DNA of 64,000 nucleotides from an uncultured Pseudomonadales bacterium (GCA_964406075.1 CAYOQI010000001.1:5015-69014), one strand, 5' to 3'. Shown: positions 4,159-38,881, counted from the stretch's first letter. A program made the numbers and translations. The notes: a model not told the origin generated them from the letters alone.

Positions 4159-4252
4159 ACTAATGAGTTTGATTGTACCAAAACTCTCACTTTTGTCTGC
4201 AGAGTCAGAATCACCAGATGCACATACCATAACTTTTTGGTACTATTAGGAA

Positions 4253-20203: not shown

Positions 20204-21466
20204 CTACTTATTTTGTCTTAGAAAGGCAGGAATATCGAATTCGTCTTCAAAGTCTGAAGAAGTATCGTTTTGCTCCGGTTCAGGAGTTGATTGAATAGGT
20301 GCTTGCGATTGTTGAAGAGGTTGAGGTTGAAATGAGTGTTGTTGAGGTGGTGGTGAAAATGTAGACCGACCAGACATTTGTGGCTGGACATAGGAATTAG
20401 GAGCAACTTCGATTTTGGGTGGAGCTGGCGGTGCTTCGGGCTCTAATTTATCTTTTGAGGCTCGACTATATGCACCAAAGGTAGGACGCTTCAGGGCGTT
20501 GTAATTGGTTCTACCATCAAATCCAGTAGCGATGACACTGATACGAACTTCTTGGCCCATGGTCTCATCAATCGTTGCTCCAAAAATGATGTTGGCATCT
20601 GGATCAGAAGCTTGAGAAATGATTTGAGATGCATCAGCTACTTCACTCATGGCCAAGTCAGAGCCACCGATAATGTTGTAGAGCACACCTTTCGCGCCAT
20701 CGATCGAAACTTCAAGTAGTGGTGAAGAGATAGCCATTCTGGCAGCATTGATCGCTCGATTTTCTCCACTTGCCGCACCGATTCCCATCAAAGCTGAACC
20801 TGATTCAGACATGATTGTTTTAACGTCTGCAAAGTCAACATTGATCAAACCAGGAACGGTGATCAGATCTGATATTCCTTTTACACCTTGACCAAGAACA
20901 TTATCCGCTAAGCGAAAGGCATCAAGCAAAGTCATTTTTTTATCAACCACATCCATGAGTCGTTGATTTGGAATCACGATTAAGGTATCAACATTATCTT
21001 TCAGCAAATCAATGCCTTCCTCAGCGGCATTCATGCGGCGAATGCCTTCAAACAGGAATGGTTTCGTCACAACAGCGACCGTTAACGCTCCAGCTTCTTT
21101 GGCAAGTTCAGCCACGATTGGTGATGCACCTGTTCCGGTACCTCCACCCATACCAGCAGTAATAAAGACCATGTCTGTATCAAAAAGAACTTCTTGGATT
21201 TTTTCACGAGATTCTTCAGCTGCTTGGTGACCAACATCAGGATCTGCTCCACTCCCGAGCCCTTTGGTGTAATTATTTCCGATTTGGAGTTTGGTATCAG
21301 CTTTGGAAGTTAAAAGTGCTTGTGCGTCAGTATTGATGGTAATGAATTCGACTCCGGTAATTTTTCCGGACTCAATCATGGAGTTGATGGCATTTCCACC
21401 ACCGCCACCTACACCAATCACCTTGATCTTCGCAAAGGAAGTGTTGCTGGGTTTGACGAATGCCAT
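20204..21466 (-). CDS. ftsZ: cell division protein FtsZ
   Basis: [25 protein letters not shown], a long P/Q-rich linker and the C-terminal peptide DIPAFLRQ. Confidence 0.97.
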
Positions 21467-21699: not shown

Positions 21700-23004
21700 T
21701 TACGGTAGAAGAGATTTTAATAATTCAGCAAATTTTCTTGGTAATTGGTCAACACCTCCGGAAAATGGGTTTGGAATGGACAAGCCAGACCGTTGAACCG
21801 TCTCTACCCCTTTACCTGCTCCATGCAAAAGCAAACCAAGACTGGTGGAGTATGCCGGCTTTTCAACTTCATCGATCAATCCCTGAAATCCATGAGGGAT
21901 ACCAACTCGAGTAGAAAGTTGTAAGGTGCGTTTACAGACATCATCGATATACGCAGTTTCGGCACCACCACCCGTTAACACTACTCCAGCGGGAATGGCA
22001 TTAAATAGTTTTTGTTTTTCTAATTCTTTGCCAATCAATGTAAACATTTCTTGCATTCGAGGAATCACAATTCGTTCAAATAATACTTTTCTGGAGAGCG
22101 GTGGAATGTTTTCAGCAATACCTAACATTTTTATATCAATGGCATCTTCTTTTTTTCTTCTTTTTCTTGCGTCTTCTTTACTCTCACCGGTCAATGCCAC
22201 AGGTGAATCAGGAATACTTCCGAGTTTGAGTTTAATAATTTCAGCTGATTGCAAGCTGACTTGGCAACCAAGTGCAATGTCTTGGGTAATATGTCGAGCT
22301 CCGACTGGAAGTACGGCGGAAAATTCAGGTGAACCTTCTACAAAGGCTGTTAAAGACGTTGTCCCGGCTCCGATGTCGACCAAGATCACACCCAGTTCTT
22401 TTTCAGTTTCCGTTAACACGGCTTGAGATGAAGCGAGACCAGAGAACACGAACTCTCGAACTGTTATTCCCATTTCATTAATACATTTTTCAATATTTTT
22501 CAGCACAACTGAGGAGGCAGTAATGATGTGTGCTTCGGCTTCTAAACGAATTCCACTCATACCAATCGGATCTCGAATGCCATCTTGGGAGTCGACTCGA
22601 AAGTTCTTGGGAATGATATGGATGATTTCTTTTCCGGTAGGAAGTGACACCGCTTTGGCCGCATCAATGACTCGAGCGACATCTTCGCCAGTAATCTCTT
22701 GATTTGGCTGGGCGACAGCAACAACACCTTTGGAGTTTTGAGATTGAATCGTAATCCCACCAACACTGACATAGGCTTGTTGGATATTCACTCCAGCCAT
22801 ACGTTCAGCAGCATCGACACTTTCCGTAATTGCCTCGACTGCACTGTGGAGATCAACGATTTGGCTTTTTCGCATGCCTTTCGACGCAACAGAAGAAACA
22901 CCGAGGACTCGGATATTTTGTTTGCCTTCACTAACATCGGCAATCAAGGTGACGACTTTGTCAGTACCTATATCGAGAGCAGAAACAAGTTGTTGTCTGG
23001 GCAT
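21700..23004 (-). CDS. ftsA: cell division protein FtsA
   Basis: Actin-fold motifs LDIGTDKV, VDIGAGTT and LTGGGA, with a C-terminal amphipathic helix FAELLKSLL. Confidence 0.95.
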   Translation of the reverse strand: MPRQQLVSALDIGTDKVVTLIADVSEGKQNIRVLGVSSVASKGMRKSQIVDLHSAVEAITESVDAAERMAGVNIQQAYVSVGGITIQSQNSKGVVAVAQPNQEITGEDVARVIDAAKAVSLPTGKEIIHIIPKNFRVDSQDGIRDPIGMSGIRLEAEAHIITASSVVLKNIEKCINEMGITVREFVFSGLASSQAVLTETEKELGVILVDIGAGTTSLTAFVEGSPEFSAVLPVGARHITQDIALGCQVSLQSAEIIKLKLGSIPDSPVALTGESKEDARKRRKKEDAIDIKMLGIAENIPPLSRKVLFERIVIPRMQEMFTLIGKELEKQKLFNAIPAGVVLTGGGAETAYIDDVCKRTLQLSTRVGIPHGFQGLIDEVEKPAYSTSLGLLLHGAGKGVETVQRSGLSIPNPFSGGVDQLPRKFAELLKSLLP

Positions 23005-24119: not shown

Positions 24120-25274
24120 TTATTTTTTCTCGACTGCACCTTTTTGTTCTTCGAGGACGACATCAATAAGATTCAGTAATCGTTTCGCACCATCCCAAAT
24201 ATATTCTTCTTTCAGTTTTTCAGCCGCTTGTTGCATGCTTCTATACCGACGAGAAACGTTGGACAATGCAGACAAGAAAGTCTGTGGTGTGAGATCTTTT
24301 TGTTCCAAAATAATTGCTCCTCCGGCTTTCTGAATTGCTTCAGCATTTTTGTGTTGTTCGTTATCACGAGAAAATGGCAAAGGAATCAGTACTGCAGGAA
24401 CTCCATGATAAATGAGTTCATGAATTGTGTTGGCACCTGATCTGGAGACGGAGAGTCGGGCATTGTTGTACACCCAAGTCAGTTCTTTCTCATTCATCCA
24501 CGTTTTAACCACATACTCTTTTTGAAGGTCTTCGGGGAGTGATTGAGCTTGTACCTGAAGTGTCTGTTCATAATTGGTATATGAATTCGGATTTCCACAT
24601 TGATGAATGACAAACCACTTTGAAGTTAATTCTGTCAACGTTTCACCCACTACCCGATTCAATATTTCTGAGCCTTGATTACCGCCGGTAATATAGAGAA
24701 TGGGTTTAGAAATATCTTTTGGTATCCATTTTGGATGAGTGGAAGCTGCTTGCATGACGCTAGTTCGGACGGGATTTCCAGTGACGACTGTTTTTCCATC
24801 GGGAAATTGCTCAATCGTGCTTTCATCAGATACCGCAACTTTGGCTGACAACACAGCAATTGCTTGATTAGCTAAACCGGCTGAGCTGGTTTGTTCGTGG
24901 GTAATTACTGGAACATGTCGAATTCGACAGACGAGAGCGATCGGAAAAGCCAAATATCCGCCAAATGACAAAAACAGGTGAGGTTTTTTTTCAGTCACAA
25001 TTTTCCAAGCAATTTTTAAAGCTGGAGCCCACTTGCCTATTTCATTAAAATTATTCCACCAGAAGGTTTTGTAGAATTTCGGTGCGATTGTTGGGATGAA
25101 TTCAATACCTCTCTTTTCAATTTCAGCGCGTTCATGAGAGAGTTGTTGAGTTGCGTCTTGAGAATATTCACGACCAAGGAAAATAAATTCCAGATCACGT
25201 TTGTCTTTTTTTGCCTGATCAATAACTGCTAAAGCTGGAGTGAGATGTCCTCCGCTAATGAGTATTTTTTTCAT
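24120..25274 (-). CDS. murG: UDP-GlcNAc:lipid I GlcNAc transferase MurG
   Basis: GT28 pattern: KILISGGHLTPALAV, ITGGNQGS, SRSGANTIHELIYHGVPAVLIPLP. Confidence 0.9.
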   Translation of the reverse strand: MKKILISGGHLTPALAVIDQAKKDKRDLEFIFLGREYSQDATQQLSHERAEIEKRGIEFIPTIAPKFYKTFWWNNFNEIGKWAPALKIAWKIVTEKKPHLFLSFGGYLAFPIALVCRIRHVPVITHEQTSSAGLANQAIAVLSAKVAVSDESTIEQFPDGKTVVTGNPVRTSVMQAASTHPKWIPKDISKPILYITGGNQGSEILNRVVGETLTELTSKWFVIHQCGNPNSYTNYEQTLQVQAQSLPEDLQKEYVVKTWMNEKELTWVYNNARLSVSRSGANTIHELIYHGVPAVLIPLPFSRDNEQHKNAEAIQKAGGAIILEQKDLTPQTFLSALSNVSRRYRSMQQAAEKLKEEYIWDGAKRLLNLIDVVLEEQKGAVEKK

Positions 25275-25350: not shown

Positions 25351-26442
25351 TCATTTGTGAGAATGCACGCTTGTTCTTGATAATGAAATAAGAATACCTG
25401 TCGCCATCATGATAGTTAACAGTGATGATCCTCCTCGAGAAATGAATGGTAAAGGAATGCCTGTGAGTGGCACCAAGGCGACCACTGCGGCCAGATTCAT
25501 GATCATTTGTCCGGATACCCAGATAACTAAGCCAGTTGCAAATAAACGCTCAAATGAGTCCTCAGGGAGGTCTTTGACAATTTGAAATGCAGTTTGAATA
25601 TAAAACAGAAAAATAAAAATCAAGGCCGTACTCCCCACAAATCCAACTTCTTCTGCAATCAATGCAAAAATAGAATCTGTGCTTGCTTCAGGAAGATACT
25701 GATACTTCTGTTTAGACTGTCCAATACCGAGCCCAAACATTCCACCATTCCCAAGTGCAATAGTGATTTGTCGAACGTGATATCCGGCTCCGAGTGGATC
25801 TGAGCTCGGACTCAGGTACGTTGTCAAACGTTCACGACGATAACTTGAAGTCAAAATTAACAGTAAAATGCCAACGATTCCCACTCCAAAAAGTATACCG
25901 ATCTCTTTTAACTTTCCTCCAGCTACCACATACATACCGAAAGCAATTAAAAGCACAATTAATGTCGAGCCAAGATCTGGTTGGATCATAACCAATGCGG
26001 TAGGTATTAAAGAAAAAGTTAAAAAAGGTGCTATTCTTTGATGTTTTATTAGCCAAGTTGCAAAAAAAGCAGAGATGCCTAACTTGATAAGTTCAACTGG
26101 CTGAAACCGTTGGCCACCAAGATCAATCCATCTTCGAGCACCATTCACTTCCACACCAATACCAGGAATCAGCACCGCAATTAAAAGAATCACTCCGACA
26201 ATGTATATCAGCGGACCAAGTTTCGACCAAAAAGTTGGTGGAATCATGGCAGAAACGATTAATACACCCAAACCAATTCCTAACCACTGAAGTTGTTGTC
26301 GGATAAAATAGTACGCATCATTAAATCGATGGAAGGCTTCGATATGTGAGGCTTCAAAAACTGCCAGTATGCCGATCAAACAGAGTACGACAACAAGTAA
26401 AAACAGTTTCCGACCATGATTGAAAGACGGCTTCAATTTCAT
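25351..26442 (-). CDS. ftsW: SEDS protein FtsW
   Basis: RWIDLGGQRFQPVELIKL, PEASTDSIFALIAEEVGF, PLTGIPLPFISRGGSS, in a dcw context. Confidence 0.9.
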   Translation of the reverse strand: MKLKPSFNHGRKLFLLVVVLCLIGILAVFEASHIEAFHRFNDAYYFIRQQLQWLGIGLGVLIVSAMIPPTFWSKLGPLIYIVGVILLIAVLIPGIGVEVNGARRWIDLGGQRFQPVELIKLGISAFFATWLIKHQRIAPFLTFSLIPTALVMIQPDLGSTLIVLLIAFGMYVVAGGKLKEIGILFGVGIVGILLLILTSSYRRERLTTYLSPSSDPLGAGYHVRQITIALGNGGMFGLGIGQSKQKYQYLPEASTDSIFALIAEEVGFVGSTALIFIFLFYIQTAFQIVKDLPEDSFERLFATGLVIWVSGQMIMNLAAVVALVPLTGIPLPFISRGGSSLLTIMMATGILISLSRTSVHSHK

Positions 26443-26511: not shown

Positions 26512-27564
26512 TCAAATGACAGCCAGCCAAACGCCAAAAAGCATGAGGATTAATGAAATGATCCATACACGCTGGACAATTTTAGGCTCTTCCCAACCCT
26601 TGAGTTGAAGCCATAGATGAAGCGGTGCGACTGGGAAAATTTTCTTTCCACGAATTCTCTTTGAGAGTAATTGAAGTAAAGAGCTCAATATTTCCACGAC
26701 AAATACTCCACCAATAATTCCCACCGCTAAAGTTTTGCCAAGCAACAGTCCGACAACAGCGAGTGTTGCACCAAATGACAGTGCTCCCACATCCCCCATC
26801 CATATTCGGGCTGGGTAAATATTGAAGTACATGAAGGCAATTAAAGAACCAATCCACAATGCAATAAATAATGATAATGGTGTATCTAAAATTGCGTATG
26901 ATAAAAACCAAAGGCCAAAGAGCGAAATCAATAAAACTCCAGATGCCAAGCCATCAAGCCCATCGGTGATATTGACTGCATTGGCGAAGGACACGATCAC
27001 AAAAGCGGCGAAAGGAATGTACATCAGTCCGACATTGAATGTGCCAACAAATGGAATATAGAAAAATGAGATTCCAAGTTGGAAATACAGAATCAGCGCG
27101 ATAATAATCGCTAACAAACATTGCACCAAAAATTTATGCTTCAATCTTAAGCCAAAGAAGCCCTCTTTTTGAAAGCCAAAGAATTTTTTAATGTCATCAT
27201 ATAAACCTAAGAGTCCGAAAGATAAAAAGGTGAAAAAGATTACATTCACTTCAGTTCTGATTGGATAGACATTTGTTATTTCAATTCCGAACAACTCTAG
27301 AAGTGGAAGCATCATGGCAAATAAAATAGAGACCACGAGCAACACTAATAATCCGCCCCCGACTGGAACGCCCACTTTTTGTTTGACATTATGAAAGGCA
27401 TTGAAGACAGGCGTGGTTTTCCCAAAGGCATCGCGAGTGTTTTGTTTTCGACGTTGGAATTTTAGTGCGTAGAGAGTGTTGATGAACGGGACGATGCAAA
27501 TCGCGGTCACAATAAATGAAAAAATGAGCAGGCCAAGCATCAGAGACATAGCGGTATTGTACAA
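26512..27564 (-). CDS. mraY: phospho-MurNAc-pentapeptide translocase MraY
   Basis: NAVNITDGLDGLA, YPARIWMGDVGALSFG and PLHLWLQLKGW motifs. Confidence 0.95.
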   Translation of the reverse strand: MYNTAMSLMLGLLIFSFIVTAICIVPFINTLYALKFQRRKQNTRDAFGKTTPVFNAFHNVKQKVGVPVGGGLLVLLVVSILFAMMLPLLELFGIEITNVYPIRTEVNVIFFTFLSFGLLGLYDDIKKFFGFQKEGFFGLRLKHKFLVQCLLAIIIALILYFQLGISFFYIPFVGTFNVGLMYIPFAAFVIVSFANAVNITDGLDGLASGVLLISLFGLWFLSYAILDTPLSLFIALWIGSLIAFMYFNIYPARIWMGDVGALSFGATLAVVGLLLGKTLAVGIIGGVFVVEILSSLLQLLSKRIRGKKIFPVAPLHLWLQLKGWEEPKIVQRVWIISLILMLFGVWLAVI

Positions 27565-27604
27565 GCTTAGATGTTAGGTGTCAGGTGTCAGGTTTTAGGA
27601 AAAG

Positions 27605-27916
27605 TTAAAGATTAGGATATCTCTTATTAACAAAGGAATTAACTCTATCAAACGCAGGCTGGACTCGTTGATCGATGGATGAATTTATAATAGAAGTCAA
27701 TTCCTCAGGGTTAATTACAAGAGTTGGAACGGGGATTTGATAGTCATTACAAACAGCAAAAAGCATAGCGATGGCTATTTCACGATTTAAATGTGATGAG
27801 GGAGAGGTATTTTTTAATTGAGCACTTGTTTGTAAATCTAAAAGAAGCTGATTTAAATATTCATCACAAAGTACTTTTTCTAGCGGAGATTTTGCCTCCA
27901 AATCAATTTCTACCAT
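27605..27916 (-). CDS. hypothetical protein (103 aa) between murA and mraY
   Basis: Intact ORF whose start lies 1 nt after the murA stop. No family recognised. Confidence 0.55.
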   Translation of the reverse strand: MVEIDLEAKSPLEKVLCDEYLNQLLLDLQTSAQLKNTSPSSHLNREIAIAMLFAVCNDYQIPVPTLVINPEELTSIINSSIDQRVQPAFDRVNSFVNKRYPNL

Positions 27917-27917
27917 C

Positions 27918-29237
27918 TTAATCTTTTCTTTCTATTTTTGCCCCCATGCTTTTGAGGCGTTCATCTAATTTTTCATATCCGCGATCGACGTGTTCAATCC
28001 CATGAATGGTGGAAGTGCCTTGGGCGATCATGGCAGCCAGAATTAATGTTGCACCGTGGCGTAAATCCTTCACATTGAACTCACCAGCTTTGAGTGGTGT
28101 AGGACCAGAAATTTTGATTGCATGCATATCTTCAGGTTTATCGTCGGCAATATTGAAGTTATATACTTTTTCCGGATGCGCAACTTCAGGTTGATAGCGC
28201 TCAATTTTTGCACCCATTTGGATCAGTTCATCAACATACTGAAAACGGCGTTGCATAATCGTCTCATGCAAGTGACTTTCGCCTGTGGCTTGAGTTGCTA
28301 AGGTTGCCCAGAGTGGTTGCCAATCAGTCATAAATCCTGGCTCAATTTCTGTGGTCACATCGGCAGAACGTAATCCATCTTTATAAAAGAATCGCATTCC
28401 ATACTTCCCTACTTCGTGGCCGGCGCCCATTTCTTCCAGCTTAGTGATAAATGCTTTTAAATGTTCGGCTTTGGCATTTTCAATAATGACGTCACCTTTG
28501 GTAGCAATCGCGGCACACGCGTAGCTGACTGCTTCATTTCGATCGGGCATGAGTTTATGAATAGCGCCATGGAGTTCACTGACTCCTTCAATTTCAATCA
28601 CCCGTTGAGCGCGACGACGAATACGGGCTCCCATGTCATTTAAAAATTCAATTAAATCATCAATTTCAGGTTCTTCAGCTGCATTTTCCAAAACGGTTGT
28701 TCCCTGGGCTTTAACAGCAGCCATGATCAATGTTTCAGTTCCGGTATGGGTATTTTTTTCAAATTTATACGTTGTTCCTTTTAACCCATTGGTTTTAGCA
28801 ATAAACATGTTGCCTTCAGTCTTCATCTCAACTCCGAGTGCTTGCAAGCCATCAAAATGGCGTTCAAGAGGACGTTTCCCAATTTGATCACCACCAGGAG
28901 CAGGCACAGCAGCTTGGCCAAAACGAGCAAGCAGTGGACCAAGAAACATAGTGGAAAATCTCCCCTGTTCTCCTTTGGCCGGATCAAGAGTCCATTTATT
29001 CAACGTTTCTGGATTGATGAAAATGGCACGTTCACCGGCCTGATGAACACTTCCGCCTAATTCGGTAATGATTTCTCCCACGGTTTTGACATCACTAATG
29101 TGTGAAAAGTTGAGCAGACGTGACTCTGAATTTGCCAGCAAAGAGGCAATCATGAGTTTGAAGGAAGCGTTTTTGGCTCCTCCAATTCGAACTGAGCCAT
29201 TAAGTGGTGTACCGCCGGTGACGAGAAAAGTGGACAT
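27918..29237 (-). CDS. murA: UDP-GlcNAc 1-carboxyvinyltransferase MurA (Asp at the Cys115-equivalent position)
   Basis: GGTPLNGSVRIGGAKNA..., active-site loop PAPGGDQIGKRPLERH. Codon 117 is GAT at 28889..28887. Confidence 0.95.
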   Translation of the reverse strand: MSTFLVTGGTPLNGSVRIGGAKNASFKLMIASLLANSESRLLNFSHISDVKTVGEIITELGGSVHQAGERAIFINPETLNKWTLDPAKGEQGRFSTMFLGPLLARFGQAAVPAPGGDQIGKRPLERHFDGLQALGVEMKTEGNMFIAKTNGLKGTTYKFEKNTHTGTETLIMAAVKAQGTTVLENAAEEPEIDDLIEFLNDMGARIRRRAQRVIEIEGVSELHGAIHKLMPDRNEAVSYACAAIATKGDVIIENAKAEHLKAFITKLEEMGAGHEVGKYGMRFFYKDGLRSADVTTEIEPGFMTDWQPLWATLATQATGESHLHETIMQRRFQYVDELIQMGAKIERYQPEVAHPEKVYNFNIADDKPEDMHAIKISGPTPLKAGEFNVKDLRHGATLILAAMIAQGTSTIHGIEHVDRGYEKLDERLKSMGAKIERKD

Positions 29238-29248
29238 AGCTGTGATTA

Positions 29249-29280
29249 AATTCCAAATTATTAATTTTTAAATTCCAAGC
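29249..29280 (-). promoter_or_regulatory. paired TTTGGAATTT motif upstream of murA
   Basis: On the plus strand, AAATTCCAAA at 29249-58 and AAATTCCAAG at 29271-80, with a 22-bp centre-to-centre spacing. The proximal copy is 11 nt from the murA ATG. Confidence 0.4.
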
Positions 29281-29306
29281 CTAAAAGTGATTGTATAGCA
29301 AAAAAC

Positions 29307-29612
29307 TTAATATCCTCTACGACGTTTTCTTTTCAATAACATTGCAGAATGAAAGACCTCTGTTACCTTTTTTTTATTTTCTTTCTTAGCGATAATCAGA
29401 GTGAGCTTTTCTATTTGCTTTTTTTCATTTAATAATTTTTCTCTTTCTGATGTTAGTTCTGAAAGTCTTTTTTTTGAAAGATTTTTTTTATGTGTAAAAA
29501 GATGAAGGATAACTTGGAGCCTTTGATCAATAAATACTTCTCGATTTGCAGTTGACCAATTTGGCAAAGCAAGATAATTAGATGGTAGCTCTGTACTATT
29601 TACCATTGTCAA
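29307..29612 (-). CDS. hypothetical coiled-coil, basic protein (101 aa) between murB and murA
   Basis: Intact ORF overlapping the murB 3' end by 17 nt, with a Lys-rich heptad-like region and an RKRRRGY tail. Confidence 0.5.
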   Translation of the reverse strand: MTMVNSTELPSNYLALPNWSTANREVFIDQRLQVILHLFTHKKNLSKKRLSELTSEREKLLNEKKQIEKLTLIIAKKENKKKVTEVFHSAMLLKRKRRRGY

Positions 29613-30648
29613 ACCCTAAATAAAAAATTTCTGATTTGAGTTCGATGCCGGTTTTTTCTTTAGTTTCATTTACTAAAGTGTCGATCACGGCTTTGTACTC
29701 TTTGGCTGTAGCATTTCCAACGTTTTCAATAAACGCACAATGTTTTTCTGAAACCATTGCTCCGCCGATTTTAAAACCTTTTTTGTTTAACACATGCTCA
29801 ATTAAGTATCCAATACTCGGTGTTGGAAGGTTGAGTTGTTTTTGCTGGTCAGCAGTTAAATTTTGAAAGACACACCCAAGTGAATTTTGAGGTTGAATAC
29901 TTTTTCGTTTTGCCCATTCAACCACGACTTGTTTAGCTTTTTCCACGTCGCCTTTAAATAAAAGAAAAGTAGCCGAAACAATTACTTCTTCTGAGTGATG
30001 AAAGCGAGAAAAATCATATCCGAACTCAGCATCTTTGGTTGCGATTTTTTGTAGTTCGCCATCTTTATCAATCACTGTGATGAACTCAATCACTTCGCTG
30101 ATGAAATGAGTGCCACCATGAATATTATTGTAAATGGCACCGCCAATACTCCCTGGAATTCGAGAAAACCATTGCAGGCCGGTAATACCTTGTTGCAGTA
30201 AAGTATTGATCACGACAGGCAAACCAACACCCGAAGAAATTTCTACTCGAATACGTGGTGAATCGTTTTCATTGTAATCAAGATCTTCAAATTCATATTT
30301 TTTATTTGAATTAGAGTCGTCTGATTGCCAGCGAGGAATTGTTGTCACTGTTTCAATCGGAGCGGTGACGTTTTCATTCACTATATCAATTTGATTTGAA
30401 GTGTTTTTAACAACCAATCCTTTGATCCCCTCGTCCGCAATCAATGTATTCGCACCCCAACCGAGGAGAGTTACAGGTATTTGATTTTTACGGGCAAGCG
30501 TTATTAATTCAACAAAATCTTTGGTGTTAGGAGTTTCGACGTACAGTTCAGCAGGTCCGCCAATTTTGACTGTCGTATGCGGAGCCAGCAAATGATTCGA
30601 TTCGAATTTAAGATGCGGAAATTTGTTAGGTAGATCTGAAAGTGTCAT
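29596..30648 (-). CDS. murB: UDP-N-acetylenolpyruvoylglucosamine reductase MurB
   Basis: FAD-binding N-terminal region (HTTVKIGGPAELYVE, LGWGANTL) and C-terminal GCVFQN...LIE motifs. It contains an acidic insertion. Confidence 0.9.
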   Translation of the reverse strand: MTLSDLPNKFPHLKFESNHLLAPHTTVKIGGPAELYVETPNTKDFVELITLARKNQIPVTLLGWGANTLIADEGIKGLVVKNTSNQIDIVNENVTAPIETVTTIPRWQSDDSNSNKKYEFEDLDYNENDSPRIRVEISSGVGLPVVINTLLQQGITGLQWFSRIPGSIGGAIYNNIHGGTHFISEVIEFITVIDKDGELQKIATKDAEFGYDFSRFHHSEEVIVSATFLLFKGDVEKAKQVVVEWAKRKSIQPQNSLGCVFQNLTADQQKQLNLPTPSIGYLIEHVLNKKGFKIGGAMVSEKHCAFIENVGNATAKEYKAVIDTLVNETKEKTGIELKSEIFYLGFDNGK

Positions 30649-30650
30649 GG

Positions 30651-30890
30651 TTATTGTTTGGGTCTATATAGGCCAAAAAGTGGTAGATATTTAACTTTAT
30701 CGCCAGGTGCAAAAAGATCTTTTTCACTTCTCTCCCTGTTCGTGACACACGGCTGAACGGTTATTCCTAAACCTAATTTAATAGTCGCGTAAAAGTCACA
30801 ACCAGAATTTCTTTGATTAAACTTAGGAAACACATCTTGAATAGTCACATCTTTACCACATCTTTGAACAAGTTCCTTTCCCAAATTCAT
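30651..30890 (-). CDS. hypothetical protein (79 aa) between murC and murB
   Basis: Intact ORF lying 12 nt after the murC stop and 2 nt before the murB start. No family recognised. Confidence 0.5.
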   Translation of the reverse strand: MNLGKELVQRCGKDVTIQDVFPKFNQRNSGCDFYATIKLGLGITVQPCVTNRERSEKDLFAPGDKVKYLPLFGLYRPKQ

Positions 30891-30902: not shown

Positions 30903-32354
30903 TTAAATCTTATCATGGACTTTATAAATATCTCCGGCACCAAGTGTAATCATGACATCGTGTGGCTTGAGCTGAGTTAAACAGTATTCAGTCAGTTTTT
31001 CAATTGTTTTGAGATTCATGACATTGGCTTTGGGATTCATTTTCTTAATATCTGAAACGAGATCATCCGAACTGATTTCATCCGAAATTTTTTCTCTGGC
31101 TGAAGGAAAAATATCTAATATAACAACTTCTTCCGCGGTTGATAAAGCTTGAACAAATTCTTTTCTCAATGCGATGGTTCGCGAGAAGGTATGAGGTTGA
31201 AATGCGATCACGCAACGGTAGTCTGGATACCACTCTTTTATTGCTCGAATGACTGAAGTTATTTCATGTGGGTGGTGAGCATAGTCATCATAATACCAAA
31301 CATTTTGTTTGTGACCTTTGAACTCAAATCGTCTTTGCGTAGACTGAAAAGTTGAAATACTTTGCACTGCGTTAAAAAGCGGAAAACCAAGTTTACTGAC
31401 TGCCACAAGTGCGGCAGTAGCATTTTTCATATTAAATTCGCCCGGAAGAGAAAGATTCAGTTGTTGAATTTCATTTTCATATTTCAGTTGACCGTGAGAT
31501 ATTCCCGGGGAAAAATGAATCTGATCAATCACGTACATATTGGTTGGATTTTTTCCGAACGTCACTACTTTTATATCTTCCCGTTGTCTTTGAACTGCTT
31601 TACTAACTTCTACTAAGTTTTCATCATCACCATTGATTATTAAAATTCCACCGGCTTTCAGTTGAAGAAAAAATTGTAAAAAAGTCCGCTTTGTCATCTC
31701 AAAGTCGTCATAGACATCGGGATGATCAAAGTGAAGATTAGTGCAAACGATAATATTTGATTGTAAAAAAGAAAAGCGAGGTACAGGTGGTTTTTGTTGT
31801 GGATCGATGACGTACTCATCAGCTTCAGCCACAAAAAACTGAGAATTAGCATCCCATTTTCCTGTTTTATTTAAACCGATAATATTTCCAACTCCAATGC
31901 TATACGAAGGATACTGGTTCAATTGATGAAGCATCCACACAATCATGGCAGAGACAGTTGATTTCCCACCAACTCCACACACGGCAATTCCAGTTTTACT
32001 ATTAAATAGTTGACTGAGCGCTTCAGCTTGTGAAAGTGTTGGAATATTTTGTTGCTTGGCCCACTGCACTTCAGGATTATTTGGGCCACCGTGTGCAGAC
32101 GTATAAATAAGCAGATCAATTGGTGTTGAAAGTTGATAATTATTAGTTTGGAGTTTTTCAAATTCTGCTTGGCTGTTTATGAAAGGAAGGATCGGAATGT
32201 TCAGTTCACGAAGCATGTGTTGGGTAACAAAATCTTCTTCTAGATCAGAACCCGTCACCATTTTTTCCATATCTCTCAAACATTGAGAGATCGAAGTCAT
32301 GGCAACGCCTTTGATGCCGGTTAAATGCACATGATGAGCTGAGAAAATATCCAT
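30903..32354 (-). CDS. murC: UDP-MurNAc--L-alanine ligase MurC
   Basis: N-terminal HVHLTGIKGVAMTSISQCL...VTGSDL, P-loop CGVGGKSTVSAMI, and Mur ligase middle and C-terminal domains. Confidence 0.85.
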   Translation of the reverse strand: MDIFSAHHVHLTGIKGVAMTSISQCLRDMEKMVTGSDLEEDFVTQHMLRELNIPILPFINSQAEFEKLQTNNYQLSTPIDLLIYTSAHGGPNNPEVQWAKQQNIPTLSQAEALSQLFNSKTGIAVCGVGGKSTVSAMIVWMLHQLNQYPSYSIGVGNIIGLNKTGKWDANSQFFVAEADEYVIDPQQKPPVPRFSFLQSNIIVCTNLHFDHPDVYDDFEMTKRTFLQFFLQLKAGGILIINGDDENLVEVSKAVQRQREDIKVVTFGKNPTNMYVIDQIHFSPGISHGQLKYENEIQQLNLSLPGEFNMKNATAALVAVSKLGFPLFNAVQSISTFQSTQRRFEFKGHKQNVWYYDDYAHHPHEITSVIRAIKEWYPDYRCVIAFQPHTFSRTIALRKEFVQALSTAEEVVILDIFPSAREKISDEISSDDLVSDIKKMNPKANVMNLKTIEKLTEYCLTQLKPHDVMITLGAGDIYKVHDKI

Positions 32355-32362
32355 ACATTAAT

Positions 32363-32394
32363 AAATTCCAAATGATTAAATATCAAATTCCAAA
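32363..32394 (-). promoter_or_regulatory. paired TTTGGAATTT motif upstream of murC
   Basis: On the plus strand, AAATTCCAAA at 32363-72 and 32385-94, with 22-bp spacing identical to the murA site. The proximal copy is 8 nt from the murC ATG. Confidence 0.4.
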
Positions 32395-32466: not shown

Positions 32467-33153
32467 TTATTTATTTCTCCATACTGCTACTAAAAATCGT
32501 CCATCCTCATCTTTTTGTTCTTTTGATCGGCGATGAGAATAAAACGCTTCTTTTTCCATGTATGTATCTTTATCATAATCAAAAATATTCTCTGCCTTCA
32601 TTTTGCATTGTACCAAGCTATTTTTAGCATAGGCAGACAGATCAACATGATACCCTTTTTTTGATTCAGTGATGAATTGATGCCACTCTGGAAAAAATGC
32701 TTGCACAGGTGCTTGAGTGGAAATATTTGACTGGGCATGTAATCCGGGACCTATCCAAGCAATGAGTTTTTCCGGATCACATTTATAGTGAAAATCCTTC
32801 AATTCTTTTACCGTTAACGGAATGATATTTTGAAGTAAAGATCTCCAACCTCCGTGAATCATTGTTAACACATGGCTTTTGGGTTCAATCATAATGATGG
32901 GAAAACAATCACCAACTACCATTGATAAACACAGTTCGGGATTATCCGTCACCACAGCATCACCTTTTTCTTCTGTGACATCTTTTTTCCAATGAACGCG
33001 TTGTGATCCATGTAGTAATCTCAAGAAACCGACTGGATGAGGGCAACCAGCTGCTTTAATTAATTGCTCAGCTTGTTCTTTGGTAGTAATACTCCCCTCG
33101 TTTCGAGTGGAAAGTAAAATTGTATAGTCAGGATGAAAAGGTAAGGTGATCAT
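32467..33153 (-). CDS. pgeF: YfiH/PgeF (DUF152) peptidoglycan editing factor / laccase-domain protein
   Basis: DAVVTDNPELCLSMVVGDCFPI, HGGWRS and GPGL motifs. Confidence 0.85.
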   Translation of the reverse strand: MITLPFHPDYTILLSTRNEGSITTKEQAEQLIKAAGCPHPVGFLRLLHGSQRVHWKKDVTEEKGDAVVTDNPELCLSMVVGDCFPIIMIEPKSHVLTMIHGGWRSLLQNIIPLTVKELKDFHYKCDPEKLIAWIGPGLHAQSNISTQAPVQAFFPEWHQFITESKKGYHVDLSAYAKNSLVQCKMKAENIFDYDKDTYMEKEAFYSHRRSKEQKDEDGRFLVAVWRNK

Positions 33154-33167
33154 GAGTAAGTCATCAG

Positions 33168-33803
33168 TTAATTATTTTTCTGTTTTATTATTTCAGTAAA
33201 TTCGGTGAGTGAGGTAATTGTTAATGTTGGGACAAAGTCACTGGTTTTTTCTAGCGGGTTTCTTTGAATCCAAACGGTTTTCGTGGCAACATGCAGCTGT
33301 GTCGCTAATTCAAGTAACTCGTGTTGGTTGTCCATGTACCATGATTCGTGGGGGTCAAATTTCTGCAGTAACTGAACGTACTCTTCCATCTTATTGTCAT
33401 AAATAAAAGCATAGTTCACTAAGTTTGCGAGACCAGATTGCTGGACTTTCACTTGTTGAAATAAACCATCACCAGTTGAAAAAAGTGCGACAGTGCCTAA
33501 CTCTTTGAGTTTTGGAAGTTCGATATGAACATCAGGATATAAGAATGTTGCAAAATCATGATCGAGAAAGGCGTGAAAAAAATCATCCCGTTTTTCCACG
33601 AGTCCTTTTTTTTCACAGAAGTTTTTTATAGTATTTTGGACATGAAAAGGCGTATTCCGGAGTGATCGATTGAGTTGCCAGAACTCATCCAACAATGTTG
33701 CATCGCCAAGTAGGCTCAGCAGTCGGTCAGAAATATCTTTTTTTAACCGTGCGGTATCGAAAAGTGTGTCATCAATGTCGAGCAGAAATAAGCGGTTTAT
33801 CAT
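33168..33803 (-). CDS. HAD superfamily hydrolase
   Basis: Motif I LFLLDIDDTLFDT, plus downstream S/T and D motifs. Confidence 0.75.
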   Translation of the reverse strand: MINRLFLLDIDDTLFDTARLKKDISDRLLSLLGDATLLDEFWQLNRSLRNTPFHVQNTIKNFCEKKGLVEKRDDFFHAFLDHDFATFLYPDVHIELPKLKELGTVALFSTGDGLFQQVKVQQSGLANLVNYAFIYDNKMEEYVQLLQKFDPHESWYMDNQHELLELATQLHVATKTVWIQRNPLEKTSDFVPTLTITSLTEFTEIIKQKNN

Positions 33804-33824: not shown

Positions 33825-35042
33825 TTAGGCAGAAATATCTAGGCTTTTCTGAATTCCTTCACTGTCGTTCCAGGGATACTCTATCGTACCATAGCACATG
33901 GTTTGCTCATGGCCTTTACCGAACACTGCAATAGTATCGCCTGATTTGGCTAAAGTGTTGATCGCAAAGTCGAGGGCTGTTTGTCGATCTGGAATTGAGT
34001 GAATATGATTGTGGCCTGTTGTGAGATTTTCTTTCATTTGGCGAATAATTGTCCACACGTTTTCTGTTCGTGGATCTTCAGCCGTAAATACACAGTAGTC
34101 GGCGAGTTCAGTCCCATACTGTCCCATGCGAGATCGTTTACTTGGATCACGTAAGCCAGCACACCCAAACACTGCAATCAGCTTTTTCCCTGCTATGGTC
34201 GTTTTCTTCAAAGAAAGTAAAGCTTCTTTCAATGCATTTGGAGTGTGGGCGAAATCCACGATGATTCGTAAGTTTCTATCATTTTTAATTTCTTCCATTC
34301 GACCAGGAATTCCTGAAAAGCTCGAAATACCTTCCACAATTTTTTCTTCATTTACTCCAAGTTGCATGGCTAAAACAGAAACCAAAGTTGCATTGTTGTG
34401 ATTGTATGACTGAGTAAAACGTGTACGAATCGCAGTTTGGAGTTTTTCACTCAGATTTTTTAAAGAATATTCAATAAATTTTGTTTGATTAATAGATAAG
34501 ATTTGAGTTACTGACTCAGTCGACTCGTCTTGTCTGGGAATGACTGCGAGCTCAGCTTCCGCGAGCATACTGGCTTTGGCCTTCACATATTCAGAATAAC
34601 TGACGTGATAATCAAGATGTTCATTATTTGAAATATTCGTAAGTCCAGCAAAGTTCGGTGTTATTCCCCAATTTCGATATTGGTATATTCCGTGTGAAGT
34701 CGTTTCCAATACAACGTGGGTAAATCCTTTATCAACAATTTCTTTCAATATTTTTTGAAGTTGCCAGGGATTAGGGTTAGTGACATGAAAACCAGTATCA
34801 ATTTGTTCATCGCCAATGTAGGCAGCGACCGTTGAAATTAAGGCAACTTTGTATCCGGCTGTATTTAAAACGTGGTACAGCATGGTAGATGACGTCGTTT
34901 TGCCATCGGTACCGGTGATCATGATAACGGTCAGTTTACTACTCGGGAAGTTATAGACCAGATTGGCCGGAAGAGCTTCATACAAAAAAGTTCGAAAGAA
35001 GTGGTACAGTTTTTTGGATTGATAAATAATGTGTTTATTCAT
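33825..35042 (-). CDS. murE: Mur ligase, MurE-like (short form, 405 aa)
   Basis: P-loop ITGTDGKTTSSTML, DFAHTPNALKEAL, FGCAGLRDPSKR and TAEDPRTE, resembling MurE. The usual N-terminal domain is largely absent. Confidence 0.7.
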   Translation of the reverse strand: MNKHIIYQSKKLYHFFRTFLYEALPANLVYNFPSSKLTVIMITGTDGKTTSSTMLYHVLNTAGYKVALISTVAAYIGDEQIDTGFHVTNPNPWQLQKILKEIVDKGFTHVVLETTSHGIYQYRNWGITPNFAGLTNISNNEHLDYHVSYSEYVKAKASMLAEAELAVIPRQDESTESVTQILSINQTKFIEYSLKNLSEKLQTAIRTRFTQSYNHNNATLVSVLAMQLGVNEEKIVEGISSFSGIPGRMEEIKNDRNLRIIVDFAHTPNALKEALLSLKKTTIAGKKLIAVFGCAGLRDPSKRSRMGQYGTELADYCVFTAEDPRTENVWTIIRQMKENLTTGHNHIHSIPDRQTALDFAINTLAKSGDTIAVFGKGHEQTMCYGTIEYPWNDSEGIQKSLDISA

Positions 35043-35046
35043 TCAC

Positions 35047-36813
35047 TTATTCCCTATCTGGCAAGATATTTAATAGTATAAACAATTCTTTGGAAATGTC
35101 ATACCAGAGCGGTGCTGCTGTCTCTGAAGCCCATTGAGAAGATTGAGGTTCTCGCAGTTTTACCAACATCACAAATTCAGGATTAGAAGCTGGCGCAAAG
35201 CCGATAAAACTAGCAATAGTTTTATCTGCATCATAGTGACCAGCAACCGGGATTTGAGCCGTTCCGGTTTTCCCAGCAACGGAGTATTTTTGGCTGGCTG
35301 TCCATTTTGCTTCACCTTGGCTGGCAGCATGAACCATCATTTCTGTGACCGTAGCAGCGGTTTTGGCTGAAACGGGTTGCCCGAGCAGTTCAGGTTCGAC
35401 TTTTACCTCTTCTCCATCAACCTTTACTGACTCAAGTATCTTTGGTCGCATCATATTTCCATTGTTTGCAATTGCTCCGACCGCTTTCACCATTTGCAAT
35501 CCTGTCGTGGCAATACCTTGTCCAAATGATGTGGTCGCGAGATCGATCGGCGTCCAATTTTTTCGAATCTGTGTTCCACTATCCTCTTGGAGTTCCACAC
35601 CTGAGGCTTTTCCAATTTGGAATTTTTCTAAATAGTCGGTGAATTTTTCCTGTCCGAGCTCTTCTGCCACGAAGATCATGGCGGTATTGTCGGATTTGGC
35701 CAATCCATCTCGAATGGTGATGTTGGGATTGTAGACCTCATTCCAAGTTTTCAAGGTATATCCAGCAATTTTGCGGGCGGTGGCACATCGTGTACAAATA
35801 GTTTCAGGTGAAATAATTCCGGCATCAATTCCAGCGGAAACGGTCAGCACTTTAAATGTCGAACCAGGTTCATAGCCTTCGGCAACGAGCGGATTTCTAT
35901 ACCACTCTTGAGGATACTGAGCATAGTGTTTGGGATCATAATTTGGAAAACTAGCCATCCCGAGAATATTTCCAGTTCTCGGATCCATTACCAGAACTTC
36001 GCCTGAGATTGCACCATATTTATTCATGCCTGCCAGGAGTTTTTTCTCCAACATGTATTGAACATCTCGTCGAATGGTGAGTTTTACATCGCGTCCATCT
36101 TCGTTATCGGGCAAGGAACTATCAGTCAACGACAGTGTTCGCCCTCGGGCGTCTGTTTTTCTTTTCACTTTCGCAACGTGTCCTTGAAGTTCGCGGTCGA
36201 GCTGGCCTTCGATTCCGAAGTATCCGATATCTGCTCCATTGGTATCTTTCCCAACAAAGCCGACGATTTGAGCAGCCAGTGAAGCTTCAGGATACTGACG
36301 AATGGTGTAGGCATCGAAACCTATTCCAGGCAAATCCAAGGCCTCAATGGCTTTCTTCTGATCTTCATTCACTTCTTGTTGGATTGCAATCCATTTTTTA
36401 TCAGAGTCAGCAAGTTTATTTTTCAGTTCATCGAACGTTAAGGGAGTAATTTTTCCACTTGGACTAGCTGTGTCAGGTAGTGTTTTGAGTGAAGAAAAAA
36501 GTGCATCTGCAATTTCGACAGAACTTTTCTTGAAGTATTGTGGTTGAGCAAAGAGTGTATACACAGTTTGATTGCCGACGAGCAAGTGACCGTCAGCGGT
36601 ATACATTTTCCCACGTTTCCCTTGCCAGTTTGATACAGAGGTATATTGAGATTCAGCCAAGGCTTGGAGTTCTTGACCTTTAAAAATTTGCCAATAAAAA
36701 AGGCGACCAATGATCACTAAAAAAGCAAAATAAATACATCCTTGGACGAGGCGAAGACGATCGAGAGTTTGAGGTGATTTTTGTCTGGAATGAAAGGTAG
36801 CTCTTTTTTGCAT
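35047..36813 (-). CDS. ftsI: class B penicillin-binding protein (FtsI/PBP2-type transpeptidase)
   Basis: N-terminal TM helix, dimerisation domain, and the SxxK (GSTFK), SxN (KSDN) and KTG (GKTGTA) motifs. Confidence 0.9.
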   Translation of the reverse strand: MQKRATFHSRQKSPQTLDRLRLVQGCIYFAFLVIIGRLFYWQIFKGQELQALAESQYTSVSNWQGKRGKMYTADGHLLVGNQTVYTLFAQPQYFKKSSVEIADALFSSLKTLPDTASPSGKITPLTFDELKNKLADSDKKWIAIQQEVNEDQKKAIEALDLPGIGFDAYTIRQYPEASLAAQIVGFVGKDTNGADIGYFGIEGQLDRELQGHVAKVKRKTDARGRTLSLTDSSLPDNEDGRDVKLTIRRDVQYMLEKKLLAGMNKYGAISGEVLVMDPRTGNILGMASFPNYDPKHYAQYPQEWYRNPLVAEGYEPGSTFKVLTVSAGIDAGIISPETICTRCATARKIAGYTLKTWNEVYNPNITIRDGLAKSDNTAMIFVAEELGQEKFTDYLEKFQIGKASGVELQEDSGTQIRKNWTPIDLATTSFGQGIATTGLQMVKAVGAIANNGNMMRPKILESVKVDGEEVKVEPELLGQPVSAKTAATVTEMMVHAASQGEAKWTASQKYSVAGKTGTAQIPVAGHYDADKTIASFIGFAPASNPEFVMLVKLREPQSSQWASETAAPLWYDISKELFILLNILPDRE

Positions 36814-37283: not shown

Positions 37284-38183
37284 TTATTTGAGCTCAAATA
37301 TTCGTAATTTTGCGCTTCGAGCTCGAGGGTTTTCTCGTAACTCATCAGCATTGGCTTCTAATGGTCGTTTTGTAATTTGTTTTCCTTTTCCTTGCTCTTC
37401 CCACTTCTTCAATGTTTGTTTGGCAATTCGATCTTCACCTTCGTGAAAGCTGATCGTGACGACTCTTCCTCCAGATTGTAAAACTTCAACTGCCTGAGGC
37501 AGGACGTCTGAGATATTCTCAAGCTCACTATTTACTGCAACTCGCAGTGCTTGAAAAACTTTGGTTGCTGGGTGCAGGTGACCTCTGCTTTGTTTCATCC
37601 TTTCAATAATTCCTGTTAATTGTTTCGTGGTCGTAATCGGCTTTATTTGTCGTTCTCGAACAATGGCTTTTGCAATCGATTTTGATGATTCTTCGCCGCC
37701 GTACTCTTGAAAAAGCAAAGCCAATTGGTGTTCATCAATCAATGCGAGTAAATCTTTGGCTTTTACTCCCAATCGATCATCCATTCTCATATCGAGTTCA
37801 CTATCAGAATCAAATGAAAAACCTCTTGTTGCGTCTTTGAGCTGATCAACCGTCGTACCAAAGTCAAACAAGATTCCGTAAATACTTTGTTTCACTTCGG
37901 TGCGAAGATTGTCCAACTGATTTTTTAAATCTCTGAAATTTGATCGAAGTAAAATTAAACTGCCAGCTTCGATTTCATTCTTAAATTTCTCTTGACCAAA
38001 ATCGATTGCTTCCTGATCAAAGTCAAAAGCAATGACTTTTCCGCCTTTTTCTAAAATTGCCTGTGTATGACCGCCTCTTCCAAACGTTCCATCCACATAC
38101 CATTTCCGTGTTTTTACCTGTAAACCTTCAATGGCTTCAACTGGCATAACTGATTGATGTAAAGGTGCTTGCATAAATTCCAA
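37284..38183 (-). CDS. rsmH: 16S rRNA (cytosine1402-N4)-methyltransferase RsmH
   Basis: HQSVMPVEAIEGL, YVDGTFGRGGH, DLGVSS-like FDFGTT and ISFHEGEDRI motifs. Confidence 0.95.
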   Translation of the reverse strand: MEFMQAPLHQSVMPVEAIEGLQVKTRKWYVDGTFGRGGHTQAILEKGGKVIAFDFDQEAIDFGQEKFKNEIEAGSLILLRSNFRDLKNQLDNLRTEVKQSIYGILFDFGTTVDQLKDATRGFSFDSDSELDMRMDDRLGVKAKDLLALIDEHQLALLFQEYGGEESSKSIAKAIVRERQIKPITTTKQLTGIIERMKQSRGHLHPATKVFQALRVAVNSELENISDVLPQAVEVLQSGGRVVTISFHEGEDRIAKQTLKKWEEQGKGKQITKRPLEANADELRENPRARSAKLRIFELK

Positions 38184-38618
38184 TTATTTTTTTTCTTCAG
38201 GTTCGATGTGTTCAGCGATATCATTTGCTCGAGTCTCTAAGTTTTCTATGTATTGGTGATATCGTTCTACGTCCCAAATTTCAATTTTGTTATAACTTCC
38301 AACGATGACGACTTGTTTTTCTAAGTGAGCAAAAGTTCTCAAGTATTCAGGAATTAAGATTCTTCCTAAATGATCAACTTCTACTTCTGATGCGTCATTG
38401 GTCATGAGACGAACGACATCGCGATGATCTTTTTTTGTAAAGGTGCGAGTGGTGAGCGTTCCCACTTCGTTTGCCCAGGTCTCACTCGGAAATACGTAGA
38501 GTCCTCCATCAAATCCTCGAGTCAAAATAAACGTCTCTGTATTCGTTCCGCGAAACTTTTTGGGCAAAGAGACGCGTCCTTTGGCTTCTATCGTGTGATA
38601 ATATCTACCGATATACAT
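38184..38618 (-). CDS. mraZ: transcriptional regulator MraZ
   Basis: MYIGRYYHTIEAKGRVSLPKKF and a second SpoVT/AbrB-like repeat VEVDHLGRILIPEYL. I chose the start at M11 of the track ORF by alignment to the canonical MraZ N-terminus. Confidence 0.9.
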   Translation of the reverse strand: MYIGRYYHTIEAKGRVSLPKKFRGTNTETFILTRGFDGGLYVFPSETWANEVGTLTTRTFTKKDHRDVVRLMTNDASEVEVDHLGRILIPEYLRTFAHLEKQVVIVGSYNKIEIWDVERYHQYIENLETRANDIAEHIEPEEKK

Positions 38619-38881
38619 TTTATAAGTCTCTTTACCATTTCTTACCACTTTGTTAATAAATATTATTGTACTCTGGGAGAGTCGGGAGTAAAGGAGAAAA
38701 TGACCCGAAAGAGCAAGCCATTTAAATAAAATATTTACGACCTTTGGAGTTTTTTATAACAGCTACTTTTTGAATCAATATTGTTTTTTAAAGAAATGAT
38801 GAAAATATACCTATACGTCGCATACTCTTCTCAAGAAGATACTTTGGTCTTATAATATTTCCCTGTGTGCCTTAGATGACG

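Follow-up and report, generated by a model that had tools for sequence, protein, structure and literature searches.

Small ORFs at three consecutive mur junctions

The minus strand of the 64,000-nt stretch of DNA analysed here (GCA_964406075.1, CAYOQI010000001.1:5015-69014; hereafter the window) carries a division and cell-wall (dcw) gene cluster in which small open reading frames (ORFs) alternate with four genes of the Mur pathway, murC, murB, murA and mraY. We refer to these ORFs as s79 (murC/murB junction), s101 (murB/murA) and s103 (murA/mraY). MurB homologues place the host among the Patescibacteria, as a Pacebacteria-like bacterium. An initial annotation of this DNA had reported a small ORF of no recognisable family at each junction, which the ORFs themselves, the Pfam assignments of their neighbours and the lack of any family match all confirm. 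We assign s79 to a protein family A, s101 to a family B and s103, by position and with weak sequence membership, to a family C. All three families appear, from the genomes and metagenomes searched, to be confined to a narrow Pacebacteria-like clade (MurB at least about 62% identical), and we conclude that the small genes are lineage-specific add-ons, not general parts of the Mur pathway.

The ORFs lie close to adjacent genes: 12 nt separate murC from s79, 2 nt s79 from murB and 1 nt murA from s103, and s101 overlaps murB by 17 nt from a TTG start or by 11 nt from ATG 29606. The tight coupling described in the initial annotation thus holds for these spacings; it does not extend to s101 and murA (69 nt apart) or to s103 and mraY (40 nt to a TTG, 55 nt to ATG 27549). 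The latter ATG is probably the mraY start rather than TTG 27564, because the N-terminus of MraY in the closest relative, MPLMLGLLIFSF, aligns with the window's MSLMLGLLIFSF at ATG 27549.

Evidence that the small ORFs are genes

At a stop-codon probability of 0.064 per codon, frames of 79, 101 and 103 codons remain open with P = 0.005, 0.0012 and 0.0011, and the codon score of the annotated frame exceeds that of the other five frames in every case. Our clade sample comprises five sequences, the window and four short metagenomic contigs, L001 to L004, which come from the samples ERZ27275549, SRR26389779, SRR31239916 and SRR34294820. L001 (MurB 82% identical to that of the window) has the order murC-(87)-murB-(98)-murA-(90)-mraY, where numbers in parentheses are ORF lengths in amino acids (aa); L002 (73%) has murC, a 147-nt gap and murB-(87) before the contig ends; L003 (67%) has murC-(83)(84)(105)-murB-(110)-murA-(111)(91)(92)-mraY-(105)-ftsW; and L004 (62%) has murC-(55)(105)-murB, three opposite-strand ORFs, murA, a 304-nt gap and mraY. 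Families were defined by all-against-all BLAST and by family hidden Markov models (HMMs) scored leave-one-out against 2000 shuffles, which were beaten by the members of A and B and by four of the five members of C. Each family is tied to one junction in the window, in L001 and in L003, as B also is in L002.

Small ORFs thus recur on the same strand at the same junctions of related genomes despite saturated synonymous sites (dS 1.9 for murB and 2.8 for murC), and their conserved motifs are encoded by differing synonymous codons across genomes. Several L003 members are preceded by strong AAGGAG ribosome-binding sites, in a lineage in which Shine-Dalgarno use is generally weak. By these sequence criteria, families A and B are certainly real protein-coding genes and s103 very probably is one. 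Chance ORFs in non-coding spacers, or misannotation, would fit the low codon scores, the lack of homologues outside the clade and the weak family membership of s103; they do not fit frames with P 0.001-0.005 per ORF that appear on the same strand again in several genomes, motif conservation at the protein level or the L003 ribosome-binding sites. Nor is an RNA family there, as an Rfam scan of the whole window returned three tRNAs only and no family in the small-ORF region. We regard this explanation as highly improbable overall, and as very unlikely for A and B in particular. A further possibility, that they are remnants of a larger gene now in decay (genes of about 410 aa occur between murA and mraY elsewhere), was ruled out because the family HMMs match nothing in six-frame translations of 140 loci and because the tandem copies in L003 are mutual paralogues.

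Three protein families, one per junction

Family A comprises s79, the 87-aa ORF of L001 and the 83- and 84-aa tandem ORFs of L003. In leave-one-out scoring s79 reached 21.1 bits against a shuffle maximum of 7.1 (2000 shuffles). Its conserved C-terminal motif, V-K-Y-L-P-L-F-G-L-Y-R, follows the family consensus (V/I)(K/R)(Y/W/I)LP(L/F/V)(F/L)G(P/L/A)(Y/F)(R/H) and is retained, with synonymous codon differences, in L001 and in both L003 copies. A role of this motif as a DNA-level signal for murB translation was ruled out, because its codons differ by synonymous changes and because even the L003 copy that does not adjoin murB retains it; the constraint therefore acts on the peptide rather than on the DNA. 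The third L003 ORF at this junction (105 aa, 2132-2449) does not belong to the family (hhalign P = 0.34), and the 105-aa ORF at the murC/murB junction of L004 is marginal (hhalign P = 0.018).

The FtsZ C-terminal tail binds FtsA, and the family A C-terminus, YLPLFGLYRPKQ, weakly resembles the FtsZ tail of the window. Family A might accordingly be read as a mimic of the FtsZ C-terminal peptide, whose LPxFGx(Y/F)R end would dock on FtsA or another FtsZ-tail binder and link precursor synthesis to the divisome. The s79 end, VKYLPLFGLYRPKQ, and the FtsZ tail both carry (I/L)-P-x-F...R at the extreme C-terminus followed by a few polar or basic residues, and the gene is located in the dcw cluster. 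The likeness amounts to only 3-4 residues, however, and requires a 2-residue insertion, and the acidic residues that precede the FtsZ motif are missing from family A; we give this idea scant credence.

Family B comprises s101 and the 98-aa ORF of L001 (42% identical), with weaker but significant membership of the 110-aa ORF of L003 and the 87-aa ORF of L002. The leave-one-out score of s101 was 46.2 bits against a shuffle maximum of 14.8 (2000 shuffles). The family shares an N-terminal motif, ELPxxYLxLxNWxTANRE..QRL, which in s101 is followed by a K/E-rich helical middle. The s101 gene very probably starts at ATG 29606 and encodes 99 aa: the protein library contains this form and no 101-aa one, and the alignment with the L001 orthologue begins at the corresponding methionine. 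The initial annotation had described a Lys-rich, 101-aa coiled coil with an RKRRRGY tail. The composition (15 K and 23 K+R of 101 residues) and the basic tail stand, whereas the coiled coil is not established, as 71 of 300 shuffles did as well in a crude heptad test (not significant). Origin of the family B N-terminus (S-[ST]-E-L) from the ancestral MurB tail (..SELxGIV) by frameshift was ruled out, since L002 and L003 keep the MurB tail in addition to the B gene.

Family C comprises the 90-aa ORF of L001 and the 111-, 91- and 92-aa ORFs of L003, and has a C-terminal helix motif, DPxV...Q(V/L)..(Y/F). Membership of s103 is weak: 62 of 2000 shuffles scored as high in the leave-one-out test (p ~0.03), and no BLAST alignment to the L001 ORF was obtained. 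Against the profile of the other four members, hhalign gave P = 0.005 over 51 collinear C-terminal columns. With them s103 shares its junction, an acidic isoelectric point (pI 4.6; family range 4.6-4.9) and an all-helical prediction. Small ORFs at the murA/mraY junction of other Patescibacteria (L076 1928-2287, L086 5872-6219 and L135 1054-1428), tried as further members of C, proved unrelated; they encode hydrophobic proteins of 115-124 aa that look DgkA/undecaprenol-kinase-like by eye.

Neither s79, s101 and s103, nor their relatives, nor the profiles built from them gave a meaningful match in Pfam (reported to E <= 1), NCBIfam, PHROG, PADLOC or the sequences of PDB chains, which were queried with the family profiles. 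No PHROG match fell below E = 0.0037 and none was consistent within a family; PADLOC matched no member of A, B or C. DivIC/FtsL-type Pfam models matched neither the window proteins nor their L001 and L003 homologues. With ZapB, ZapA, SepF and GpsB-DivIVA profiles no window protein exceeded a curated threshold, and the 110-aa L003 homologue matched ZapB at E = 0.013 and 16.4 bits (cut-off 31.5), amid several generic coiled-coil matches. By inspection, the three window proteins have no signal peptide and no hydrophobic stretch of membrane-helix length, and their grand averages of hydropathy (GRAVY) are -0.46, -0.69 and -0.09. The small ORFs are single and lie between enzyme genes, with no pairing of toxin-antitoxin type. 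A repeat search of the window, L003 and L004 found no repeats bracketing them in the manner of integron-like cassettes or cassettes flanked by miniature inverted-repeat transposable elements (MITEs); the only notable repeat adjoins murC and murA upstream.

A narrow distribution within a widespread gene order

The order murC-murB-murA-mraY is widespread in Pacebacteria and Microgenomates-type genomes, with median gaps of 2 nt at murC/murB (at most 100 nt in 56 of 61 cases), 12 nt at murB/murA (74 of 83) and 24 nt at murA/mraY (41 of 63). Among about 120 other Patescibacteria loci with this order we found no member of A, B or C; these more distant loci include some 35 GTDB species representatives, L005, L061 and L062, and many contigs from the Joint Genome Institute (JGI). 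Likewise, the family HMMs detected nothing beyond the known members in six-frame translations of 140 related loci and of the rest of the window, and L017 and L039, which have the same HAD-like/PgeF arrangement upstream of murC as the window, have no small ORFs. The initial annotation had raised the possibility that the frames decay in relatives with the same gene order, and the outcome is split: ORFs persist in L001 to L004, and every more distant relative with this order is without them.

Broader searches did not enlarge the clade. A search of 5.8 billion proteins with s103 returned only s103 itself; among 1.84 billion cluster representatives the 99-aa s101 found only its L001 orthologue and one spurious coiled coil; and s79 was assessed through its 90% protein cluster, which has one member. 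JGI metagenome contigs scanned with family B motifs and viral contigs scanned with the family A motif yielded no confirmed relative. A scan of genome contigs found nothing when run with a single MurB and 55 loci when run with a MurB alignment; since the best of these reached no more than 59%, the clade is not among the GTDB species representatives. A metagenome scan anchored on MurA gave 80 loci and no clade member.

Additional orphan ORFs occur in the clade. Besides the third ORF at the murC/murB junction of L003, they include L003 7293-7610 (mraY/ftsW, 105 aa), L002 986-1390 (ftsI/murE, 134 aa) and L004 5539-5706 (55 aa). In place of family B, L004 carries opposite-strand tandem ORFs of 100, 108 and 104 aa (7220-8212) that show no relationship to the three families. 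A weak AbiEi-like PADLOC match (E = 0.0066) was obtained for one of them and a weak helix-turn-helix-type Pfam match (E = 0.035) for another. Because orphan ORFs are found at other dcw junctions, junction expansion in this operon is clade-wide and goes beyond the three junctions flagged initially.

Tempo of evolution

The small proteins diverge several-fold to tens-of-fold faster than the enzymes that flank them, with only their short motifs constant. Between the window and L001, MurA has dN 0.018 and dS 0.61, MurB dN 0.11 and dS 1.9, and the C-terminal part of MurC dN 0.23 and dS 2.8. Family B has dN 0.53 and dS 1.2 (omega ~0.43), and families A and C reach dN 0.87 and 0.92 with saturated dS; in both, the proportion of nonsynonymous differences (pN) is ~0.52-0.53. 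MurA (window 27918-29237, L001 2401-3717) is 97% identical between the two genomes at the amino-acid level, versus 82% for MurB and 68% for MurC. Lineages may have exchanged murA by recombination not long ago, or its synonymous sites may be under unusually strong constraint.

Gene neighbourhood and transcription-unit hints

The remaining genes of the cluster are listed in Table 1. Between the MurE-type ligase gene and murC, the clade has a 211-aa ORF (no Pfam match; HAD-like by eye) and the Cu-oxidase_4/PgeF-type gene, which together span 32467-33803 in the window; most relatives have a CofD-family gene of ~327 aa at this position. Further along, an 836-aa protein (42726-45236, minus strand) has the endosialidase-chaperone domain Peptidase_S74, as is typical of phage tail-fibre or tailspike-like proteins, a GC-rich stretch at ~40-42 kb coincides with glycosyltransferase genes (GT2, PMT_2), and another gene of the SEDS family (FtsW/RodA) is found away from the dcw cluster at 14347-15417 (minus strand), near the genes for ribosomal proteins L21 and L27.

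Table 1. Genes, small ORFs and sequence elements of the dcw cluster in the window.
Feature	Position	Strand	Assignment or remarks
MraZ	38184-38648	-	Pfam
RsmH	37284-38183	-	Pfam
FtsL-position ORF, 107 aa	36919-37242	-	position only (precedes ftsI), no Pfam match
FtsI	35047-36813	-	Pfam
MurE-type ligase	33825-35042	-	Pfam
Cu-oxidase_4/PgeF-type protein	32467-33153	-	Pfam
32-nt element, second copy	32362-32393	-	TTGGAATTT(G/A)-N12-TTGGAATTTA; just upstream of murC, after a hairpin and T-run 3' of the pgeF-like gene
murC	30903-32354	-	Pfam; Mur ligase, three domains
s79, 79 aa	30651-30890	-	ORF at murC/murB junction, family A
murB	29596-30648	-	Pfam; FAD_binding_4 + MurB_C
s101, 99/101 aa	29307-29606 (29307-29612 from TTG)	-	ORF at murB/murA junction, family B
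32-nt element	29247-29278	-	TTGGAATTTA-N12-TTGGAATTTA; s101-murA gap, just upstream of murA
murA	27918-29237	-	Pfam; EPSP_synthase fold
s103, 103 aa	27605-27916	-	ORF at murA/mraY junction; family C by position, sequence membership weak
s103-mraY spacer	27556-27593	-	Tandem Repeats Finder (TRF): CCTGACA x3, then -10-like GTACAAT 7 nt upstream of ATG 27549
mraY	26512-27549 (26512-27564 from TTG)	-	Pfam; Glycos_transf_4
FtsW	25351-26442	-	Pfam
MurG	24120-25274	-	Pfam
FtsQ-position ORF, 261 aa	23289-24074	-	position only, no Pfam match
FtsA	21700-23004	-	Pfam
FtsZ	20204-21466	-	Pfam

The two copies of a 32-nt element upstream of murA and murC are 88% identical in the repeat search, and a single exact TTGGAATTTA lies at the mraZ/rsmH boundary (38174-38183); the element was not found at the equivalent places in L001 to L004. 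It may serve both genes as an operator or promoter, and its presence in the gap between s101 and murA suggests that a separate regulatory or transcription unit begins at murA. The spacer between s103 and mraY contains a promoter-like match, CTGACA-17-TACAAT. GTACAAT also stands 7-8 nt upstream of the mraY ATG in L001 (~4200-4225) and L003 (~6225-6244), and its occurrence before mraY in three genomes suggests a near-leaderless internal promoter. The enlarged spacers of L001, L002 and L004 hold similar CTGACA/CTAACA-rich runs. These features suggest three units, murC-s79-murB-s101, murA-s103 and one that begins with mraY, from which it would follow that each small gene is expressed with the enzyme gene upstream of it.

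Candidate modulators of the Mur enzymes

We favour, at a probability of roughly 0.4, the reading that the small genes encode adaptors or modulators, dispensable and specific to this lineage, each of which would recognise a conserved partner by means of a short invariant motif. Judging by the gaps and the overlap, each small protein would be translated together with the adjacent enzyme. In this model s79, s101 and s103 would act in the cytoplasm as modulators that the pathway can do without, not as core subunits, and the motif of each would dock on a conserved partner, most plausibly the co-expressed Mur enzyme. We prefer this reading because the motifs are conserved at the protein level, because each family is faithful to one junction and because the genes are tightly coupled to the upstream enzyme gene. 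Several observations weigh against it. The codon scores of the three ORFs (0.08-0.17) are low compared with those of the genome's genes (0.29 +/- 0.09), and the genome is rich in orphans, with no family assigned to 7 of 10 further small ORFs that were checked. Partners of near-invariant enzymes are normally conserved, and here small-ORF dN values of 0.5-0.9 stand beside 0.018 for MurA. Junctions within the clade hold anywhere from 0 to 3 copies: L002 has a 147-nt gap and no A gene, L004 has no C gene and fills its B junction with unrelated opposite-strand ORFs, and the roughly 120 other loci with the same mur order have none of the three families. Finally, single-sequence AlphaFold2 models of s79 (pLDDT, the predicted local distance difference test score, 49.6) and of s103 (48.6; four helices) were unusable, and they lend no weight to the globular look that the initial annotation gave these two proteins.

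The modulator reading stands only slightly ahead of a second one, nearly as plausible to us, that the small ORFs are young orphan genes which hitch-hike in the operon. Junction DNA would have been gained in the ancestor of the clade with no specific role in peptidoglycan synthesis, and the frames would be kept open by weak selection, or mainly because ribosomes that read through the spacer maintain coupling and prevent polarity in an operon with high expression. The near-saturated amino-acid divergence of A and C, the weak codon adaptation, the flux and loss of copies and the absence of these genes from other lineages with the same operon all agree with this, as do the unrelated small ORFs at other dcw junctions (105 aa in L003, 134 aa in L002, three on the opposite strand in L004) and the frequency of orphans in this genome. 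Such passengers would not, however, be expected to keep short motifs at the protein level across saturated divergence, to hold each family to one junction, or to leave tandem duplicates as intact ORFs with strong ribosome-binding sites of their own. Moreover, s101 and s103 end their apparent units, with 69 and 55 nt of untranslated gap after them, so that a coupling spacer is unneeded there.

The initial annotation had proposed that the small proteins serve the Mur pathway as lineage-specific accessory subunits, scaffolds or regulators, or that they stand in for missing division factors. The lineage-specific part of this has held up, in that these are genuine genes conserved within, and restricted to, one clade. 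We think it highly unlikely, and largely refuted by the distribution, that they are core subunits or scaffolds or that they substitute for absent division proteins. The regular interleaving and tight coupling would suit such a role, and Mur complexes have been proposed and mur gene order described as often conserved (PMC10214165). Yet the genes are not found in the ~120 related loci with the same order, are lost or replaced within the clade and diverge to an extreme degree; copy numbers of 0-3, the replacement in L004 and this divergence beside a 97%-identical MurA argue against obligatory subunits or scaffolds. As for missing division factors, MraZ, RsmH, FtsI, FtsW, MurG, FtsA and FtsZ are all present in the same cluster, which contradicts the replacement proposal.

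Rapid evolution, tandem duplication, copy-number variation and narrow distribution are also typical of conflict genes. By analogy, the small proteins could be guards or decoys that shield MurA, MurB, MurC or MraY from inhibitors made by phages or competitors, their divergence being the product of an arms race; there are documented phage proteins directed at precisely two of these, MurA and MraY (bioRxiv 10.1101/2023.10.16.562596). We consider this quite improbable. Neither a PADLOC nor a PHROG family is matched, viral contigs hold no relatives for the family A motif, dN/dS is below 1 in family B, the only family for which it can be estimated, and nothing ties these organisms to such inhibitors. 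A bolder reading, which we hold to be unlikely, would make A, B and C enzyme-specific, fast co-evolving small binding proteins, each translated along with its enzyme and attached to it by a short invariant peptide. Jointly they would regulate or protect the Mur enzymes of an episymbiotic bacterium as a layer peculiar to this lineage. Family A would then act on MurC and MurB (or on FtsA, via its LPxFGxxR end), B on MurB and MurA, and C on MurA and MraY; the layer might, for example, guard MurA and MraY against protein inhibitors of phage or host.

If the small proteins do bind their neighbours, they would be the first adaptors or modulators found interleaved with Mur enzymes, and would open a way to study how Patescibacteria, ultra-small and dependent on a host, adjust or safeguard the making of cell-wall precursors. 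Should they prove to be no more than young orphans, the locus would still be a clean natural case of gene birth, tandem duplication and loss inside one of the most conserved bacterial operons, and more than 100 relatives show the tight junctions that are its ancestral condition. In both cases only a few uncultured genomes, known from their sequences, are concerned.

Comparison with known systems

A literature search returned no report of small adaptor proteins interleaved between mur genes. One functional analogue may be ReoM (IreB family, Firmicutes), a small cytoplasmic protein that controls the ClpCP-dependent degradation of MurA (PMC7286690). The window proteins would resemble it in their proposed role, that of a small cytoplasmic modulator of Mur enzymes outside the catalytic pathway. 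They differ in that ReoM is conserved across Firmicutes and has no sequence relationship to them: the window proteins have no IreB match in Pfam (at E <= 1) or NCBIfam, and the family profiles found none among PDB sequences. Nor is ReoM known to be encoded between mur genes.

Phage proteins of single-gene lysis inhibit MurA (A2 of Q-beta) and MraY (E of phiX174) (bioRxiv 10.1101/2023.10.16.562596), and they illustrate that specific binding and modulation of these two enzymes is within reach of small or unrelated proteins that evolve fast. Unlike these phage-encoded inhibitors, the window genes belong to the chromosome and run in the same direction as the genes of their putative targets; they lack PHROG matches and, for the family A motif, relatives on viral contigs. 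Small division proteins such as FtsL, FtsB, DivIC, ZapA, ZapB, SepF and GpsB are of similar size and dcw location, and family B shares with them a long charged helical segment. The window proteins have no Pfam match or transmembrane segment, however, and a separate ORF in the FtsL position precedes ftsI. Fusions and complexes of Mur enzymes, for instance MurE-MurF (PMC10214165), go with the idea that conserved mur gene order reflects enzyme association, into which adaptors could be accommodated; the known cases are fusions or contacts of the enzymes themselves, not interleaved small adaptors. Similar in general character are the orphan small genes of Patescibacteria, also known as the Candidate Phyla Radiation (CPR), which the genes described here match in being short (79-111 aa), without detectable family, limited to a narrow clade, fast-evolving and weakly adapted in codon use. 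What sets the three apart is that they are not scattered but fill consecutive junctions of an otherwise tightly packed, widely conserved mur block, with one family at each junction across the clade.

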